DNA from: Thermodesulfobacteriota bacterium
GTDB lineage: Bacteria; Desulfobacterota; Desulfobacteria; Desulfobacterales; SURF-7
Length of the DNA: 64,000 nucleotides
Direction of reading: 5' to 3'
Assembly (NCBI GenBank): GCA_049320885.1
Contig: JBMORA010000013.1
Span: forward strand, 87,264 to 151,263
The position numbers and the translations under genes were made by a program. The notes beneath the pieces were generated by a model. That model was not told where the DNA came from. It worked only from the letters and a program-made list of their open reading frames with translations, and ran no database searches. Shown one piece after another: positions 10,815 through 19,610 of this stretch. Every line of letters begins with the position of its first letter. The first letter of the stretch is position 1.

Positions 10815-13800
10815 CTATGGATTGGCCCGCACCGTATTGAAAATATCCTTGGCCAGGATGGGAAAGGCGGTTTCTTGAAATTCGCTGTCGGCCATGTAAC
10901 GCGTTACGATCCGGTCGTTTTCCGTCATGCGTTCGAGCATCAGATCTTCAATGAGCTTACGGATGCCCAGCACGAATTTATCCAGCGGATTGGCCAGCGC
11001 CGTTTGAACCACCTGATCGTTCTTGCAGGCCTTTTCCTTGATCTGCTGAAAAAAGAGCCGGTCCTCCTCGGAAAACTGCGTGCCGAACCGCTCGTTGAGG
11101 ACTTCGATGATCTCGGATAGCGGCGCTTTTTCATCCGTGACGTTGCCGGTGCCCACGTCCGTCGGACTTTTTACGAACTGTTGTTCGCCGTCCTTCAGCG
11201 TAATAGGGCCCGCAAAAACCCGCTCCATCCGGTAATATTGCAACGCCACGTCCTCCCCTACCTTGATGATCAGGGCATCGCGGTCCATGGGCAGGTGCGG
11301 ACCGAGGAAGCGGCCGAAACTGTAAAGCATTTCCAGCTCGGGATCGGCATAGGGAATGATCTGGCTCAGAAAGGCATACACCCGCACGAAGCCGCCCAAT
11401 TTATCGCGAAACTCCCGGCGTTTCTCCGGGTCCTGAAGGCTTTTAAAACGATCCACCGCCGGTTGCAGGTGCCGCTGCATATGGGCGTGGTCCGCGGCAT
11501 TCTGAAGGGCGATGGGTTTGTAAAAGATCCGGGCAAAGGCCGTAACTTCGCTCCAATGGTAAATCTGGGTCTGGTCCAGTTCATGCTTCAGGCTTTCGAG
11601 CCGGGCCGGGTCGGAAGGCTCTCTCAAGCCGGTCTTGTCGTAATAGGGCTTGAAGGCCCGGTAGATATCCTCGGTCTCGTTGATAAAATCCAGCACAAAG
11701 GGCGCATCCTTGCCGGGAATCATACGGTTGAGCCGGGAAAGGGTCTGCACTGCCTGGACCCCGTCCAGGCGTTTGTCCACATACATGGTGTGCAGCAGCG
11801 GCTGGTCAAAACCGGTCTGGTATTTGTTGGCCACCAGCAGGAGATGATAGTCCGGGGAATTGAATCGTTCGGGCAGGCGGGATTCACTGATGGATTTGCC
11901 GGTCACCAAATCCGTGTTCATGCCCGGCCCCGTGTATTTGATCCCGGTTTCCGGGTCTTTTACCGTGCCGCTGAAAGCCACCAGGGGCCGGACGTCGCTA
12001 TAACCGTTTTCAGCAATATAGCGCTGAAAGGCGATCATATAGCGCACGGCATGCAGCCGCGAGGAGGTCACCACCATGGCCTTGGCCCGGCCGCCGAGCC
12101 GATGCCGGACAACCCGGCGGAAATGCTCCACCATCACTTCGGTCTTTTGTTCGATGTTGTGGGGATGCAGGCTTATGAACTTGGCCAAGCTCCTCACCGC
12201 CCGTTTTTTCGGCAGGTTCGGATCGTCCTCGGCCGCCTTCAGCAAGCGGTAATAAACGGCATAGGTGGTGTAGTTGGCCAATACGTCCAGGACAAAGCGC
12301 TCCTCGATGGCCTGGCGCATGCTGTAAATATGGAAAGCTTCATGAATGCCGTCCGTGCCGGGCCGGCCGAACAGCTCGATGGTTTTGCCCTTGGGCGTGG
12401 CCGTGAAGGCAAAAAAGCTCAGGTTGGGCTGGGGGCCGCGGGACAACATCACCTGGCTCAGCCGGTCTTCCCAGTCCGCCTCGCCTTCCTCGGTTTCATC
12501 CGGCACCGCTCCCAGAATGGACTTCAACTCCCGGGCCGTTTCCCCGGTCTGGCTGGAATGGGCTTCATCCACGATGACCGCGTACTTCCGGGCGGCGATG
12601 GCGGCCTCCCATTCCCCGGCCTTTTGCTTTTCCGCATCCGTGGCTTTTTCCCGGCTCTCGGCGCCGGCGGCATGCAAAAGGCCGCGCAGCACGAACGGAA
12701 ATTTCTGCAAGGTCGTGATCACGATCTGGGTCCCGTCGATGAGCGCTTCCGAAAGTTGCCTGGAATCCTGATCAATGGCCTTTACCACGCCCTGGGCATG
12801 CTCGATCTGATAAACCGCGTCCTGAAGCTGCCGGTCCAGAATGCGCCGGTCGGTGATGACGATGACGCAATTGAAAATCTTGCGGTCCTCCCCGTCATGC
12901 AGGCTCGCCAAACGATGGGACAACCAGGAGATGCTGTTGGTCTTGCCGCTGCCGGCCGAGTGCTGGATCAGGTAATTGCGCCCCGTCCCTTCCGTCCGGG
13001 CGGTGGCCACTATCCGGCGCACCGCGTCGAGCTGGTGAAAACGGGGAAAAATCAGGGTCTCCTTGACCGCGCGCCGCTTGCCGCCGAGCCCGTCGTCGAC
13101 CTTTTCGTCTTTTTTTTCTATAAACATGAAATGGCCGAGAACATCGAGAAAACTGTCACGCTGGAGTACTTCCTCCCAAAAATAACCCGTGCGATAGCCG
13201 GACGGATGCAGGGGATTGCCCGCCCCGCATTGGACCCTGCCTGGTTGGCTGCCACGGTTGAACGGCAAAAAGTGGGTGGCCTCCTTTTGCAGGCGCGTGG
13301 TCATGTGGACTTCATCCGGATCAACGGCGAAATGAACCAAGGCCCTTGTCTTGAATCCGAAAAGGGGCGCGCGCGGGTCCCGGTCCTCTTTATATTGCTG
13401 CACGGCCTTGCGCCAGGTTTGCCCGGTGCCGGGATTCTTGAGTTCGCAGGTCGCCACCGGCAGACCGTTGAGCGCCAGAAGCATATCCACGGTTTCCTGC
13501 CCGCCCGGCCGGCAAGGCGCCTGCCGCGTCACCGTCAACCGGTTCCGGGCGTAAAGCGCCGCCACCTCCTCGTTCAAGCCATGGGCGGGCTTGAAATAGG
13601 CCATTCGGAAAATCCTGCCGTAGAACTTGAATCCATGTCGAAGAATGTGCAAAGTGCCCTTGAGATTCAGCTCCTTGACCAGGGTATTCAGTATCAGATT
13701 TTCCAAACCGGCTCCGTGCAGGCCCTGCATATCGGCCCAAAGCCGGGGCTGGGTTTCCCGCAGGAATGCGCAAATCCGCGCCGGAAACAAGGCCCGCTCC

Positions 13801-13898
13801 ACGTCCCACCCGGCTTTTGATTCCCCGACCCAGCCGGAGCGGGTTAAAAGCGTTTGTTCGATATAGGTCTCAAAGGCCTGCTCGGAGGTTGGTTTCAT
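10815..13898 (-). CDS. hsdR: type I restriction endonuclease subunit R
   Basis: Nuclease motif VD...NGLPVATCELKN, Walker A QHSAGSGKT, DEAH, FTATP, TGFDQP and QTLSRLNR. Confidence 0.95.
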   Translation of the reverse strand: MKPTSEQAFETYIEQTLLTRSGWVGESKAGWDVERALFPARICAFLRETQPRLWADMQGLHGAGLENLILNTLVKELNLKGTLHILRHGFKFYGRIFRMAYFKPAHGLNEEVAALYARNRLTVTRQAPCRPGGQETVDMLLALNGLPVATCELKNPGTGQTWRKAVQQYKEDRDPRAPLFGFKTRALVHFAVDPDEVHMTTRLQKEATHFLPFNRGSQPGRVQCGAGNPLHPSGYRTGYFWEEVLQRDSFLDVLGHFMFIEKKDEKVDDGLGGKRRAVKETLIFPRFHQLDAVRRIVATARTEGTGRNYLIQHSAGSGKTNSISWLSHRLASLHDGEDRKIFNCVIVITDRRILDRQLQDAVYQIEHAQGVVKAIDQDSRQLSEALIDGTQIVITTLQKFPFVLRGLLHAAGAESREKATDAEKQKAGEWEAAIAARKYAVIVDEAHSSQTGETARELKSILGAVPDETEEGEADWEDRLSQVMLSRGPQPNLSFFAFTATPKGKTIELFGRPGTDGIHEAFHIYSMRQAIEERFVLDVLANYTTYAVYYRLLKAAEDDPNLPKKRAVRSLAKFISLHPHNIEQKTEVMVEHFRRVVRHRLGGRAKAMVVTSSRLHAVRYMIAFQRYIAENGYSDVRPLVAFSGTVKDPETGIKYTGPGMNTDLVTGKSISESRLPERFNSPDYHLLLVANKYQTGFDQPLLHTMYVDKRLDGVQAVQTLSRLNRMIPGKDAPFVLDFINETEDIYRAFKPYYDKTGLREPSDPARLESLKHELDQTQIYHWSEVTAFARIFYKPIALQNAADHAHMQRHLQPAVDRFKSLQDPEKRREFRDKLGGFVRVYAFLSQIIPYADPELEMLYSFGRFLGPHLPMDRDALIIKVGEDVALQYYRMERVFAGPITLKDGEQQFVKSPTDVGTGNVTDEKAPLSEIIEVLNERFGTQFSEEDRLFFQQIKEKACKNDQVVQTALANPLDKFVLGIRKLIEDLMLERMTENDRIVTRYMADSEFQETAFPILAKDIFNTVRANP

Positions 13899-13913
13899 CA
13901 GGATGTCCTTGCT

Positions 13914-14140
13914 GCCATCAAATAACCGTCAAATAAACCCGATCTTGCGTAAATTATCTTATTACAAATAGTTAAACAAAATATATAGTGACCGATATCT
14001 GTTATTCAACCGGATCCATCAAAATGCCATCAAATAAACTGTGAGAAATGTAAATTGTTTAATTACAAATTGTTACCAATAAATCACCATGCGACTACCT
14101 CCATCACTCACCCCACTCCATCAAAATGCCATCAAATAGA
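13914..14140. repeat. phased non-coding repeat array: three 24 bp boxes and two 26 bp AT-rich boxes, period 101-102 bp
   Basis: Box A at 13914, 14015 and 14117 (TCCATCAAAATGCCATCAAATA is exact in the last two). Box B at 13949-13974 and 14050-14075 (22/26 identical), each 11 nt after a box A. Confidence 0.9.
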
Positions 14141-14156
14141 AAATCCATGCCGGCAA

Positions 14157-15623
14157 TCAGCCCCAAAATGGAACATATTTGGCATATTTACGCCACGCCT
14201 CGGGATTATGGAGCCGAATCAGGCCCTCCTCGATGGTGTCGCGGATGATACGCGAGGCCGTAGCGCTGTTTTTCGCCTCAATACCGAAACGGTCTCTCAA
14301 TGTCGTATTGGTCATGTAGTCCCGGTTCACATATTTCAGACAGGCATGCAGGTAGCAGGCCCGGATACGGTCGTCTTTTTCCATGTCACCAAGAGCGCGC
14401 GGGGTGTACAAGATTGTTCGCGTATGCTCGTCGGTCACTTCGAATATGGGGGCCGGTAATTGGTGATATTCGGTTTGAAAGACCACCTTGTCGATGCCGC
14501 TGCCGCGTTCCTCGCAAATTCCGACCCTTCTCATGAAAGAAGTCAGAGCCTCGTTGCGCGACTTGGGCGGGCTGTCCAGAAACCGCTCGGTTTTTACCAG
14601 GGGCAGGCCCGGATTGGTGATTTCCATGCGATTCGAGAAAATTTCAATCATCGGTCCGGTGCCGCGAATGAAAAAATCCTGATGAAGGATGGCATTGGCC
14701 ACTAGTTCGCGCACCGCCGGTTCGGGGAATACCAGAACTTCCCGGCGCAGGGCCTGACCGATGACCTCATTGCTCGGCAAAAGGGTGTTGATGTAATCCA
14801 TCAGCGCTCCAAATCCTGCCGCATAGCCCTTGACGCCGACCTGCTCGCGAATGGTTTCCAGGCGGCTCCCATTTTTATAGACGATAACCCGCACGGCCTT
14901 GCGCTTTAGATTCTTGAAATCATCCAGCCTTTTGGCGAACAGGATCGCGCCCATATTGGTGATGTTCCAACCCCCGGCTTCGCAAGGCGAAATCATTTCG
15001 TCTTCGGCCAGGCGCTCCAGAATCCCCTTTCGATTTTCCGGAAGACCGAGTCCCAACAGATCGAAATAGGCCGGGTAGTCCAACAGGCGCAAGACTTCCT
15101 CAGCGGCGAGGCAATCGGCGGCCGGCAGTTGTTCAAAGGGGGTTTGATCAAAAATGCGCCACAGCGCCCGCTCTTTTTCCGGATACTCCTTGAGCCTCTT
15201 TTTGTAGGAGCCCACCCGGATGAACTCCCGCCCCTGGAACTGCACCGGGTTGCTGGATGCCCGGCTGATCTCCAGAATCACCACCGGCGCGTCTTCGAAA
15301 TTGATTTCATGAAAACTGAAATGAATGCGCGGGCTCAACAAGCGCAGCAGCCAGCTTTCCAGTTCCTCACTACCCTTCCTGGCCCGGGCCGGACAAAAGG
15401 CGGTTCCCTTGACTTCATGGGACTGATCGTCGATGCCCCACACCAGATACCCATTGGCTTTGCCGCACAGGGCCGCCGAGTTGCTCAGGGCGGAAATATA
15501 TTCGCCGATTTCCTGGGGATCGGCAAAATTGGCCTTGAACTCCACCCATTCGGTCTCTTTGGGCAAGGCCCGCAGCTCCCGCAGCAAGCCGGTCAGATAG
15601 GCCCGGGTTCGGTCCATGTTCAT
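14157..15623 (-). CDS. AlbA_2 (Schlafen-like) + HATPase_c_4 (RecG-C-like) + wHTH protein within the hsd operon
   Basis: N-terminal KETEWVEFK..ISALSN..GYLVWGIDD; RELVANAILHQDF..ITNPG..SRN..EERGSG; C-terminal MTNTTLRDRFGI..SRIIRDTIEEGLI. ATGA overlap with the hsdS stop. Confidence 0.85.
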   Translation of the reverse strand: MNMDRTRAYLTGLLRELRALPKETEWVEFKANFADPQEIGEYISALSNSAALCGKANGYLVWGIDDQSHEVKGTAFCPARARKGSEELESWLLRLLSPRIHFSFHEINFEDAPVVILEISRASSNPVQFQGREFIRVGSYKKRLKEYPEKERALWRIFDQTPFEQLPAADCLAAEEVLRLLDYPAYFDLLGLGLPENRKGILERLAEDEMISPCEAGGWNITNMGAILFAKRLDDFKNLKRKAVRVIVYKNGSRLETIREQVGVKGYAAGFGALMDYINTLLPSNEVIGQALRREVLVFPEPAVRELVANAILHQDFFIRGTGPMIEIFSNRMEITNPGLPLVKTERFLDSPPKSRNEALTSFMRRVGICEERGSGIDKVVFQTEYHQLPAPIFEVTDEHTRTILYTPRALGDMEKDDRIRACYLHACLKYVNRDYMTNTTLRDRFGIEAKNSATASRIIRDTIEEGLIRLHNPEAWRKYAKYVPFWG

Positions 15624-16981
15624 GCAGCGACCTCCCTGACATCGATTTTACCCGTTACGGCGGCGGTGATCAGGGCTGTGCGGTATTCCCGGAGTCGTTC
15701 GATGATGATTTCGATCTTGTCGACCGATTGGTCGATTTTGGCAGTTTCGCGATTGAGAAAATTCGCGATGGCGTTTTGCTCTGGTAATGGAGGCTTTGGA
15801 AACCGGTAACGACGAAGTTTCTCTCCAGTGAGATGATGAATGGTGTTTGGATTGCCTTCAGAAATAAATACCCCTTTTTGTGAAGCCCAGAAAAAAACAT
15901 AGAACATGAACCGTGGTACTTCCTTACCATTTAGTGGCCGCATCCTGTGAAGTGCTTTTTGGTATCCTATTGAAGAGCCTTTTTGTTTGACAATTGCAGC
16001 TCTTCCGACCTCACCTCCTTCACAAACCAAGATATCGCCATCTTCTATTGTATATCTTTTTCTCTCATCATCTCTAATGTCCATTTCAGGTAAATCGTCG
16101 AAGTTGATATTGTCCCATTGGACATCAATATTACGAAGGTAGGGAACCAAACACTCGCCTGTTATTCGATTTTCATTCAGCATCTTGCCGAGTTCTATCG
16201 AATAGCGGGTATATAGCGGTGGTGTTTCCCAATGCTCTGGTACATCGCCGAGCCATTCTATGCCGGAAGGTTTGAGCTTGGGGTACGGATCGAGGCCGGC
16301 AGCGCGGGCTGCTTCAGGCGGGAGTCCTCGGGTGACCGTGCGCGAGATGAGTGCGGTGCGCTTTTCCTTCAGCTTCTCGATCAACTCTCGCTTTTTCGAT
16401 AACAGCTTGTCGATCTTTGCAGTTTCTCGATCGAGAAAAATAGCGATGGTGTCCTGTTCGAGCATACAAGGAACAGATATAAATAAGTCTGTATATTTCT
16501 CAGCGCTTACATTCTGAATAGTAGTTTGTATATATACTGAAGATAACCATTGCCAGTAGCTATTCGAAGCTGTAAAATATCGGACATAAGCAGGAAGTGC
16601 TTTCTTACTATGAAGCCTGGCTCTAATCAAATAGCCTGCATATGCGCAATTTCCCCAGCTTTTTTTATATAGAAAAGTCTTCCCGGCAGTGGCCCCACTT
16701 CTAGCAAAGAGCAAGTCCCCCTCTTTTAGTAAAAACGGCGAAGCAACTTCATTTGGAAGAGAACGGAATGTTTCATCACGCAAATTACCAAGCTCGTCAA
16801 TATCCGTTATTCTTATATAGCGGGGCAAATCTGGATCATCCAATTCAGCTGACTCATTAGCACCATATTTGAGAACTTCGACAAGTAAAAACTTCAGCCG
16901 CTTCACTCCCCAACCCTCCGGCACATCCCCCAGCCATTCGACACCGCTGGGCTTGTATTTGGGATAGGCAGGATATTTCAT
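15620..16981 (-). CDS. hsdS: type I restriction-modification specificity subunit
   Basis: Duplicated conserved blocks KPSG(V/I)EWLGDVPE(G/H)W and EQ..IA.FL.RETAKID..E.RTALI flank two AT-rich TRDs. Confidence 0.95.
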   Translation of the reverse strand: MKYPAYPKYKPSGVEWLGDVPEGWGVKRLKFLLVEVLKYGANESAELDDPDLPRYIRITDIDELGNLRDETFRSLPNEVASPFLLKEGDLLFARSGATAGKTFLYKKSWGNCAYAGYLIRARLHSKKALPAYVRYFTASNSYWQWLSSVYIQTTIQNVSAEKYTDLFISVPCMLEQDTIAIFLDRETAKIDKLLSKKRELIEKLKEKRTALISRTVTRGLPPEAARAAGLDPYPKLKPSGIEWLGDVPEHWETPPLYTRYSIELGKMLNENRITGECLVPYLRNIDVQWDNINFDDLPEMDIRDDERKRYTIEDGDILVCEGGEVGRAAIVKQKGSSIGYQKALHRMRPLNGKEVPRFMFYVFFWASQKGVFISEGNPNTIHHLTGEKLRRYRFPKPPLPEQNAIANFLNRETAKIDQSVDKIEIIIERLREYRTALITAAVTGKIDVREVAA

Positions 16982-17313
16982 TCCATGCCCCCGGATTGCC
17001 CCAATTCGTGTTCGATTTTCCTGATAATAAGAGAAGAAGCATATTCTAATATACCTTTTATACGGAATCTAATTTTAAAAATTTTCACCACGAAGGACAC
17101 GAAGGAAAGCTCTATATATGAAGCATATCCTGGAAAATCTTCGTGACCTTCGTGTACTTCAGCGAAGCGGGTGGTGGAAAATATTGTGACATTCTTTTTC
17201 CTGTAAAACCATATGGTAGTAATTACAAGATCCCTTAGCAGAACGAACATCTGCAATTGTGCCGCGCCCTTTGGCACAATTGAACGTGTTTCCATTTTGC
17301 CGGACTTTTTCAC
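16978..17313 (-). other. 111-codon ORF or gene remnant coupled between hsdM and hsdS
   Basis: Starts at a GTGA overlap with the hsdM stop and ends at an ATGA overlap with the hsdS start. AT-rich, contains a palindromic element, no recognisable domain. Confidence 0.4.
17082..17181. repeat. palindromic element with 9-nt tandem arms (type often seen around GxxExxY genes)
   Basis: Left arm TTTTCACCACGAAGGACACGAAG; right arm CTTCGTGACCTTCGTGTACTTC[AGCGAAGCGG]GTGGTGGAAAA. Confidence 0.75.
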
Positions 17314-19406
17314 GCCGTCACCTCTTTCAGCAAAGCCAGTATCTCACCTTCCAGCGTCTTGATCTCCGCTTCGATGACCTCTAGGGGGCGCGGCGGTTCG
17401 TAGCAATAGAAATGCCGGTTAAGCGGAATCTCATAGCCGATCTTGGTTTTGTCGTGGTCGATCCAGGCGTCCGGCACATGGGGCAGGACTTCGCGCTGAA
17501 AATAGGCCGCGATATTCTCCTTGAGGGGCACGCTCTCGGTGTCGCGCAGTTCGGGATCGGGTTCGGGATTGCCGTGCTTGTCCACACAGATTTCGGCGGT
17601 TTCGTCGCGCTCGCCCAGGGCGCTCTGGATGGCCTTGAGTTCCGCGCCGGAAAGACGCACACCCTGCTTGCGATCGATCTCCCGCAAATCCTGGAGAAAC
17701 GTATTGCGGTCCTTGTACAGCTTGCCCTTGCCGGATGCGGCAAGCGCTCCCAGCAGGTCGCGGATTTGCTGCTGCCGTTGACGGCCGGTCTCGATTTCCG
17801 CCTGGGCCGCGGTCTCGCTTTTCTTGTTGCTGGCGGCCAAATTCTTGAAGGCGGTTTCCGTTTCCAATCGTTCCATGCGCTCGGCCGTCACCTGAAAATT
17901 GAGCCGTAGGGGGCGTTCCACCGTGATCTTGTGAAAGCCGAAGTCCGCGTTTTCGAATACCTTGCTCACCACCCGGGTCTTCTGAAGGCCGTTGGTGCTG
18001 AAATTCCAGGTTTCGCCATCCTGGAAATTGCCGAAGATGCGCGCGATATCGCCGATCTGATCCGGTTCACCCTCATCCGTGTCGCCGATCTTGTTGCGCT
18101 TGTTGCCCAGGCTCTTGCGCATCTTGATGAAAAACTGCCGGGCGTCGATGAGTTGAATCCTGCCCTTGCGCGGGGATTCCTTGCGGTTGGTCAAAATCCA
18201 GATATAGGTGAAAATGCCGGTGTTGTAAAAAAGCTGGTCGGGCAGGGCCACCACGGCCTCCAGCCAGTCGTTCTCGATGATCCACTGGCGGATGTTGCTT
18301 TCACCGCTGCCTGCGTCGCCGGTGAAGAGCGGCGAGCCGTTGAAGACGATGGCGATGCGGCTGCCGCCGTCCTTGGGGCCGCGCATCTTGGAAATCATGT
18401 GCTGGAGGAAAAGCAGGGAGCCGTCGTTGATGCGCGGCAGCCCGGCCCCGAAGCGGCCTTCGTATCCCAGGGTCTCGCTTTCCTTTTTGATGTCCTTTAA
18501 TTGTTGCTTCCATTCCACGCCGAAAGGCGGATTGGCCAGCATATAATCAAAGGTGATCCGTTTGCCGTCGGCGGAGCGGTCGAAACCGTCCCGGGTAAAG
18601 GTGTCGCCCAGGCGGATGTTGTCGGCGTCCTCGCCTTTTATGAGCATGTCGGACTTGCAGACGGCCCAGGCTTCATCGTTCCAGTCCTGGCCGAAAAGCA
18701 GGGGATTGGCCTGGGAGTTGAGGTTGCGGATGTAATTCTCGGCCACCGACAGCATGCCGCCGGTGCCGCAGGCCGGGTCATAAATGGTTTTCACCACATG
18801 GCTGCGGCGCAGATCCTTTTCCGGGGAAAGCAGCAGGTTGACCATCAGCTTGATCACCTCCCTGGGGGTGAAATGCTCCCCGGCCTCCTCATTGGCTTGC
18901 TCCGCGCCGATCCGGATCAGTTCCTCGAAAACATACCCCATCTGCAGGCTGTCGACCCGTTCGGAAAGATCGATCTTGGCAAACGCCTTGATCACCTCAT
19001 ACAGCAAATTCTTCTCGGCCATGCGCGCAATCTGCTGGTCAAAGGCGAAACGTTCCATGATCTCGCGCACGTTCTTGGAAAACCCGTTGATGTAGGCGTT
19101 CAAATTCGGTGCAAGTTGCGGCGAGTCGTCGAGCAATTTCGGCAGATCCAGTTTGGAGAGGTTATAAAACGGCTTCCCGGTGATTTTCTCCAGCAGGCTG
19201 CGCACGACGTTTTCCGGTTTGGCCTGGATAGCAGCGTACTCTTTCAGCACCTTGTCCTTGGTGGGTGCCAGCAGACAATCAAAGCGCCGCAACACGGTCA
19301 ACGGCAGGATGACCTTGCGGTATTCATTGCGTTTATAGGGTCCCCTGAGGAGGTTGCAGATGCTCCAGATGAAATTGGCCAGCTGGGAGTGGGTTGCTTC
19401 GTTCAT
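17310..19406 (-). CDS. hsdM: type I restriction-modification N6-adenine methyltransferase
   Basis: AGEHFTPREVI, DPACGTGGML, NPPF and FYNTGI motifs. Confidence 0.96.
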   Translation of the reverse strand: MNEATHSQLANFIWSICNLLRGPYKRNEYRKVILPLTVLRRFDCLLAPTKDKVLKEYAAIQAKPENVVRSLLEKITGKPFYNLSKLDLPKLLDDSPQLAPNLNAYINGFSKNVREIMERFAFDQQIARMAEKNLLYEVIKAFAKIDLSERVDSLQMGYVFEELIRIGAEQANEEAGEHFTPREVIKLMVNLLLSPEKDLRRSHVVKTIYDPACGTGGMLSVAENYIRNLNSQANPLLFGQDWNDEAWAVCKSDMLIKGEDADNIRLGDTFTRDGFDRSADGKRITFDYMLANPPFGVEWKQQLKDIKKESETLGYEGRFGAGLPRINDGSLLFLQHMISKMRGPKDGGSRIAIVFNGSPLFTGDAGSGESNIRQWIIENDWLEAVVALPDQLFYNTGIFTYIWILTNRKESPRKGRIQLIDARQFFIKMRKSLGNKRNKIGDTDEGEPDQIGDIARIFGNFQDGETWNFSTNGLQKTRVVSKVFENADFGFHKITVERPLRLNFQVTAERMERLETETAFKNLAASNKKSETAAQAEIETGRQRQQQIRDLLGALAASGKGKLYKDRNTFLQDLREIDRKQGVRLSGAELKAIQSALGERDETAEICVDKHGNPEPDPELRDTESVPLKENIAAYFQREVLPHVPDAWIDHDKTKIGYEIPLNRHFYCYEPPRPLEVIEAEIKTLEGEILALLKEVTA

Positions 19407-19485: not shown

Positions 19486-19610
19486 TGATGAAATGGTAAC
19501 AAGTCTTCTTTCCGTCACTCCCGCGAAGGCGGGAGTCCAGAACTATATGAAAGAACTGGATTCCCGCCTTCGCGGGAATGACAGAATATGGACTTGTTAC
19601 CATTTCATCA
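19486..19610. mobile_element. MITE-like element: perfect 20 bp terminal inverted repeats enclosing a REP/dRS3-like palindrome pair
   Basis: TGATGAAATGGTAACAAGTC (19486-19505) pairs with GACTTGTTACCATTTCATCA (19591-19610). Inner GTCACTCCCGCGAAGGCGGGAGTCCAG...CTGGATTCCCGCCTTCGCGGGAATGAC at 19514-19582. Confidence 0.8.

Follow-up and report, generated by a model that had tools for sequence, protein, structure and literature searches.

The analysed window, a stretch of 64,000 nucleotides from a Thermodesulfobacteriota genome, contains a type I restriction-modification (R-M) locus whose genes follow one another on the minus strand in the order hsdM (17310..19406), hsdS (15620..16981), a gene encoding a 488-aa Schlafen(AlbA_2)-GHKL ATPase-winged-helix protein (14157..15623), a gap of 258 nt with 36% GC, and hsdR (10815..13898). 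The Schlafen gene overlaps hsdS by an ATGA and has no promoter gap of its own, which confirms the coupling to hsdS and the position between hsdS and hsdR noted in a first-pass annotation of this DNA. Elsewhere at the locus, a 55-bp inverted repeat (87%), which presumably resembles a REP-like palindromic element, lies just 5' of hsdM (19486-19610), where Rfam matches stay below cut-off. An AT-rich gap of ~330 nt between hsdM and hsdS (16982-17309) holds short inverted repeats at 17246-17290 and a palindromic motif repeated near 17085-17180, and the GC content of hsdS is low (0.456).

Judged from its sequence, the 488-aa protein belongs to the known Schlafen-GHKL ATPase-winged-helix class (“Schlatpase”-HTH or pSlfn, MloB-like), with its catalytic motifs intact. 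Its three domains are a Schlafen/AlbA_2 nuclease domain (aa 23-144; 15192..15557, minus strand) with the E23-x4-E28-x-K30 motif, supported by Pfam (SLFN_AlbA_2, E 6e-21), conservation and Foldseek; a GHKL (Bergerat-fold) ATPase domain (aa 241-408; 14400..14903, minus strand) with E306/N310 and the NPG and ERGSG boxes, matched by HATPase_c_4 over aa 321-404 (E 2e-21); and a winged helix (aa 412-488; 14160..14390, minus strand), supported by the structure model and by covariation. The winged helix comprises a recognition helix (450-465, including S453), a wing (469-485, including W477, R478 and Y480) and an invariant YxPxW tail. Among 110 aligned homologues, E23, E28 and K30 of E23-x4-E28-F-K30 are conserved in 109, and E306 and N310 of E306-L-V-A-N310 in all 110. 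The model of the whole protein has a pLDDT of 89 and that of aa 412-488 a pLDDT of 94; the best structural matches of the latter region are all wHTH domains (Z 8-9.4), such as IdeR (4o6j; Z 9.0, rmsd 2.0 over 64 aa). With Foldseek, the N-terminus matches the mammalian Schlafens SLFN11/13/14 and the middle matches GHKL domains. The sole structural match over the whole length is DIP2311 (PDB 3LMM; Foldseek E 2e-21; Z 22.8, rmsd 20, 393 aligned), a longer, uncharacterised protein with 16-17% identity. The ExxxxEFK motif, the GHKL-like ‘ELVANA’ region and the C-terminal wHTH that had been read from the letters alone were thus borne out by Pfam, conservation and fold, as was the Schlafen-like N-terminus for which a structure check had been suggested. 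PADLOC 2.0 gave only a weak, partial match (E 2e-4, aa 190-339) and NCBIfam gave none; besides the wHTH, neither Pfam nor the structure model offers another candidate sensor domain.

The gap behind this gene holds six half-sites (TATTTGA or ATTTTGA) forming three direct-repeat doublets with an 11-bp period and doublet spacings of 102 and 101 nt. All are on the minus strand: doublet 1 (14121..14138) begins 18 nt past the stop codon, doublet 2 lies at 14019..14036, and doublet 3 (13918..13935), the closest to the family consensus, ends 20 nt short of the hsdR start. Two plus-strand IHF-like boxes occupy the intervals between doublets 1 and 2 (14063..14075) and between doublets 2 and 3 (13962..13974), in register with each other at 101 nt; with two mismatches to the consensus, a level common in shuffles, they are weak when taken alone. 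The doublet pattern occurs three times in the 5.6-Mb genome, always in this gap, and none of 300 shuffles of the gap reached two extra doublets, so that the array attributed to the gene by the first-pass annotation is real and unique in the genome. Tandem Repeats Finder does not list it and plain autocorrelation of the gap barely exceeds that of shuffles (0.442 vs a shuffle maximum of 0.441), indicating a motif array rather than a tandem repeat; with regard to CRISPR or non-coding RNA arrays, Rfam gave no match over it.

The array is a trait of the whole family. From 187 homologous loci fetched, 22 were dropped for an absent C-terminus, short downstream DNA or minus orientation (two of them were reused for the 7-mer prediction below), and the 165 usable loci were reduced to 156 by removing 9 near-duplicates. 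A motif-blind test, which looks for a doublet and a distant exact copy within 260 nt downstream, detected an array behind the stop codon in 115 of the 156 loci, the other 41 failing, vs 3/156 shuffles, 6/147 upstream regions and 5/617 other genes. With a pattern written after the motifs had been seen, a doublet was found in 131 of 157 loci. A phylum name is available for 47 loci, which represent 20 phyla, one of them archaeal. The first site lies at most 24 nt from the stop codon in 101 of 130 loci and at most 8 nt in 76, and a doublet of the gene's own type stands upstream of it in 5/111 loci. A reverse test on 401 genomes gave 16 doublet matches at 12 places, vs 0 for the reversed control: eight directly behind the gene or its end, three gene-less and one at a contig edge.

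Some loci have a particular composition. In one (L230/L241, G212:C31), an in-frame internal deletion fuses aa 3-82 of the family gene with its final 25 aa; the array is intact behind the deleted gene and a further doublet lies upstream. In another (L231, G169:C33), the array is kept before hsdR and a macro-domain-type gene stands upstream in place of the Schlafen gene. An E. coli member with a full array (L261:3121-6813, NZ_CP171874.1) occupies a satellite-like island, where a retron RT and an St85 effector are its back-to-back neighbours. The source genome also encodes three other PF13749-wHTH (GHKL-wHTH) genes (C58:7068-8666, C35:80350-82005 and C35:72630-73472 of G000; L196, L221), whose own 11-12-bp repeats either stand in frame before the wHTH or span the stop codon; two of the three genes are nearly identical paralogues that differ from the family in their N-terminal domain. 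Across the phylum, 22 of 27 PF13749 genes have 11-12-bp repeats in or just past their 3' region, vs 5 of 27 upstream controls, one of which is very short. These in-frame repeats are possibly the same protein-binding DNA site, hereafter the dock, placed within the coding sequence.

The half-site varies among loci (TATTTGA in 42, TACTTGA in 18, TGCTTGA in 16, TGTTTGA in 12, TATGTGA in 9 and TAATTGA in 6), and its bases follow residues of the adjoining protein. In the 110 of 157 loci with a full-length protein and a clear motif, a choice that favours clean arrays, the column of highest mutual information falls in the wHTH for four of the five variable bases: 478, in the wing, for bases 2 and 3; 453, at the start of the recognition helix, for base 4 (it ranks second for base 3); and 452 for base 7. 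K453 accompanies a purine at base 3 in 11/11 loci (1/99 others), Y453 a G at base 4 in 16/16 (1/94 others), and T, S or N at 478 a G at base 2 in 27/27 (2/83 others). Among all 488 columns, 453 is the best single-residue predictor of two base changes, with one error in 110 for each, the runner-up columns making 6 and 7. The rules had been noticed in loci L001-L080 and held in the 55 later ones (L081+), K453 predicting a purine in 5/5 (others 1/50) and Y453 a G in 8/8 (others 0/47). For 10 further plasmid or genome loci, the exact 7-mer was predicted in five and part of it in the other five, two of which have a shortened wing; the rules also fit, by eye, three more loci and an E. coli member. 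On the N-terminal tree K453 shows 11 changes and 7 pairs (p 0.016), and on the C-terminal tree 7 changes with only 4 independent supported pairs (p 0.125). Because wHTH-plus-array modules were swapped between genes, the former tree inflates the independent origins of K453, and an initial count of 11 was reduced. This covariation makes it very likely that the wHTH binds its downstream array.

Doublet-to-doublet distances cluster at 65-66, 76-78, 87-90, 97-99 and 107-111 nt, with a phase strength of 0.81 at 10.8-11 bp (n=58), and this helical phasing of 10-11 bp points to double-stranded DNA sites. Perfect matches to the IHF consensus occur in 17 of 103 inter-doublet gaps vs 15 of 2060 shuffles, at phased positions ~10-11 or 21-24 nt from the next doublet. 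Phased doublets combined with IHF boxes characterise, at the level of DNA sequence, a complex in which protein bends double-stranded DNA. A tmRNA and seven HU/IHF-family genes are present in the source genome, none of the seven matches passing the IHF-alpha cut-off.

Similar arrays are found in viruses. Two-site patterns gave 14, 4, 11 and 0 matches in IMG/VR (none for the TATGTGA type), that is 29 array matches, vs 0 for reversed and 1 for period-10 control patterns. In 23 non-redundant viral loci the array has no adjoining Schlafen-GHKL-wHTH gene, the only gene-linked loci being L265 (by HMM) and L246 (by eye, from a gene end at the contig edge). The family gene is absent from the first 18 whole viral records searched, four of them at least 90% complete, and for the other 11 matches it was sought within 2 kb on each side. 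Of the 23 orphan arrays, 17 are in phase, in a scan open to any of 31 gap lengths (18/24 when scored by script with one gene-linked locus included, p 4e-6); short doublet spacings are favoured and IHF boxes are not enriched (4/24, p 0.14). Nine orphans lie inside phage ORFs, in linkers of large polyvalent proteins (LPD1/LPD5, SLT), in a DUF551 protein, in a DnaJ protein and in others. Complete four-half-site arrays with a doublet spacing of 65 or 76 occur inside the phage ORFs of L263, L264, L266, L271, L268 and L272, where they sit in linkers of large polyvalent proteins (about aa 650-690 in L271) and of the DUF551 protein. The remaining orphans are scattered among head, replication, terminase and lysis genes, and in a complete viral contig (L249:1743-2583) the array directly follows a six-tRNA cluster. 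A phage replication origin was rejected, no scanned spanning ORF being an initiator and two copies lying near but not in replication genes, as was a cos/pac site, three copies lying near terminase genes and the rest elsewhere. A blastn search of cultured phages with the window's array returned chance-level matches only; neither GenBank phages nor E. coli genomes yielded the DUF551-linked array. One orphan array is followed by an HsdR N-terminal fragment, indicating capture from a host locus, and as cellular genomes too contain arrays without the gene (3 of the 12 places above), some viral copies may be remnants. The distribution as a whole makes it reasonably likely that the phage copies are decoys.

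Several known systems share part of these features. PrrC, a cargo of type I operons, binds the R-M complex and combines an ABC-ATPase with a HEPN nuclease. A PrrC/RloC-type anticodon nuclease was rejected here, Pfam giving AlbA_2 and HATPase_c_4 and the model showing Schlafen and GHKL folds; the obligate hsd-operon linkage of that type is also absent, some annotated copies standing alone and others belonging to a DUF1156/PLD anti-phage operon or separating hsdM from hsdS. MloB and other mlo and rlo ORFs of type I hsd loci (PMC5183652) and TgvAB (PMC11411939) are likewise cargo genes of type I operons, and a 49% identical homologue is annotated as MloB in its record; the present cassette has no need for R-M genes. 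Schlafen-GHKL proteins form 59% of 103,533 prokaryotic Schlafen proteins according to the preprint that describes Schlatpases (10.64898/2026.05.29.728809). Its Schlatpase-HTH shares the PF04326 + PF13749 supradomain, the Ex4ExK motif and the presence in R-M operons; E314/N318 correspond by motif to E306/N310, and a C-terminal HTH is the commonest Schlatpase tail. In the same source, SLFN-pAgo (RzAgo) uses an Argonaute and guide RNA as sensor, whereas a wHTH and its cognate genomic array would take this place here. Our protein has the AlbA_2 domain with Ex4(E/D)xK, PF13749 with ExxxN and the C-terminal wHTH that are common to Schlatpase-HTH and pSlfn-HisKinase-HTH. The pSlfn1 and pSlfn2 classes (Slfn-HisKinase and -HisKinase-HTH, 34% and 19% of pSlfns; PMC13056530) are alike in domain composition and defence-island association; in the accessible parts of that article the class has no shown activity and no DNA element is described, and those of the Schlatpase preprint describe no array, operator or IHF site. 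The Schlafen-minimal histidine kinase-wHTH proteins of BREX/BR systems (PMC12839542) have the same architecture and were proposed as an embedded suicidal back-up, from an analysis that, in the sections available, is computational only and includes no array or trigger; one homologue of our protein sits in a BREX/BR-type operon. TrlG of Photorhabdus laumondii (PMC7554251) also combines AlbA_2 and HATPase_c_4, and causes a conditional growth arrest, which point mutations in the one or the other domain abolish. Both the class of protein and its occurrence in R-M and BREX operons are already on record (PMC13056530, PMC12839542, 10.64898/2026.05.29.728809, MloB annotation). The array, the residue code, the IHF phasing and the viral copies were not found described in the freely accessible literature searched, and array-based control of Schlafen-GHKL-wHTH proteins is possibly a new control principle.

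With confidence evenly divided, we propose that the protein and its DNA dock form a portable stand-alone defence cassette, in which the protein is docked, limits itself by a roadblock and becomes a tRNase upon loss of the dock. The first part is strongly supported: each wHTH would read one 7-bp half-site, two protomers would sit head-to-tail on each 11-bp doublet, and an IHF bend would allow two doublets to be bound at once, giving four sites and four protomers. With the first doublet at the stop codon, the bound complex would block RNA polymerase before the end of the gene is safely transcribed; the short distance of the first site from the stop (18 nt in the window) implies that docking would truncate the product inside its YxPxW tail. 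The non-stop message would be rescued by tmRNA and the tail-less product destroyed. Such LacI/O3-type feedback would keep the protein close to the number of docks, even where transcription starts from another system's promoter, for instance the hsdMS promoter, and we slightly favour the view that the array-bound complex limits its own synthesis in this way. In LacI, two operators lie ~90 bp apart. LacI is known to limit itself by such a roadblock through an O3-O1 loop (PMC3711431), and where a bound protein blocks polymerase, SsrA tagging falls ~8 codons upstream of it (PMC13584721). The likeness is one of working only: both have a tetramer and an operator-like site at the gene's own 3' end, a site at which binding is presumed in our family, but LacI is a metabolic repressor with palindromic operators, whereas direct repeats, IHF and a nuclease cargo are found here.

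The docked protein would be inactive, until degradation of host DNA, disruption of the loop or DNA-mimic proteins remove the dock; the free protein would then form an ATP-driven tetramer and cut tRNA, leading to abortive infection as a back-up to whichever host system it accompanies. Gene-less docks of phages, often in ORF linkers, would keep the nuclease bound as decoys. The protein is probably a defence tRNase. For Schlatpase, a tetramer on ATP, tRNA cleavage and an off state of head-to-tail packing are reported, the ATP-driven tetramer and the cleavage being documented for RzAgo only in the accessible part of the preprint (10.64898/2026.05.29.728809), and two HisKinase-type pSlfn1 gave no protection in E. 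coli (PMC13056530). The published EcoSlfn1 test gene (L226:3314-4706, NZ_CP063214.1) is annotated as two overlapping ORFs of 160 and 312 aa; it falls in a different subfamily, which lacks this array; the pSlfn constructs, as far as the available text tells, included upstream promoter sequence, and one insert appears by eye to end at the stop codon (PMC13056530). We lean towards the bound protein being off, as the retention of viral copies is best explained in this way. RzAgo is activated rather than inhibited by binding its DNA target (10.64898/2026.05.29.728809) and an IHF U-turn would suit an active C2 tetramer, which counts against it. The first-pass annotation had offered a latent RNase tethered on its array and released when host DNA or the R-M complex is attacked. 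The tethering gains support from the residue-base covariation, and the gene-less viral copies fit an inhibitory dock; the link to the R-M complex is not supported, since hsdS upstream together with hsdR downstream was scored in only 20 of 156 loci, a lower bound obtained by BLAST with the window's Hsd proteins.

The other model offered there, a controller of hsdR analogous to C-proteins, has in its favour that no single gene follows more often than hsdR (31 of the 143 ORFs scanned downstream, 92 of which were classed), that the last doublet directly precedes hsdR in the window and that a roadblock is polar. Type II C-proteins are small XRE-type proteins that bind palindromic C-boxes upstream of their own gene, and a 488-aa enzyme with direct repeats downstream, rarely upstream, does not belong to them. 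Furthermore, the array is as frequent before hsdR (26/31) as before other R-M or defence genes (19/23), unrelated co-directional genes (19/23), convergent genes (13/15) and unclassed ones (53/64), and among loci of at least 9 kb it is kept in 47/55 without R-M genes vs 25/28 with them, absence being judged for these 55 of 83 loci by BLAST with the window's Hsd proteins, which misses distant Hsd types. No peak of -10 boxes appears 16-18 nt after TTGAY in 97 loci, and a promoter with TTGAY as its -35 box was rejected. The nuclease residues are near-invariant. With a roadblock, hsdR would by reasoning be expressed in a naive host, opposite to the timing seen with C-proteins. As the array is independent of hsdR and of the R-M context, control of hsdR fails as a primary function and we hold it to be improbable, a polar side effect of the array-bound protein on hsdR being plausible. 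Direct repeats with a phased IHF box also resemble att architecture, and the array could be an attP-like recombination or mobility site (integrase arm-type sites and IHF) travelling with the gene: some loci adjoin integrases, and L230/L241 has doublets on both sides of its deleted gene. The bases nevertheless follow the gene's own wHTH residues and not a neighbour, the array is fixed to the stop codon and upstream doublets are scarce, which makes this reading very improbable.

More serious, though still unlikely, is a dock that serves autoregulation only, activation coming from a separate phage signal and the bound and free proteins being equally latent. It covers the stop-codon position, the covariation and the context independence with fewer assumptions, and phage proteins activate other pSlfns (PMC13056530). 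Extra phage docks would however derepress the gene with no gain for the phage, yet phased four-site arrays are kept in phage ORFs, and the protein lacks another candidate sensor domain. Quite unlikely too is an activating scaffold, in which the IHF loop builds the active tetramer and phage copies are the detected signal or traps that break its geometry. Four sites in two antiparallel pairs recall the C2 dimer-of-dimers of RzAgo, which a DNA target activates (10.64898/2026.05.29.728809), and the lack of IHF enrichment and the short spacings of viral copies agree with it. Nevertheless, the host array is always present, so that the nuclease would need another brake; a detected motif should disappear from phages, yet it is present there at unrelated, variable positions, and an hsdR fragment was captured along with one of the viral arrays.

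Within the family, HTH-class Schlafens have no known trigger or activity and the tested HisKinase-type clones were silent; we suggest as a reason that the cognate DNA element must be cloned with the gene. A wider and tentative picture, which we regard as possible but rather doubtful when taken as a whole, is that the commonest prokaryotic Schlafen class would be a toxin whose antitoxin is an IHF-looped DNA site at the stop codon, counting the protein by roadblock and tmRNA and caging it; the pair would sense the loss of host DNA, its wHTH-plus-array modules would change specificity through a simple residue code and phage linker decoys would counter it, and the low-complexity tetrapeptide linkers of related GHKL-wHTH proteins would be in-frame docks. 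The residue-base code offers orthogonal wHTH-operator pairs. If the dock is inhibitory, it would represent an antitoxin made of a DNA site and a sensor of host-genome integrity, and with their gene-less copies viruses would possess a counter-defence encoded in sequence, invisible to gene-based screens.
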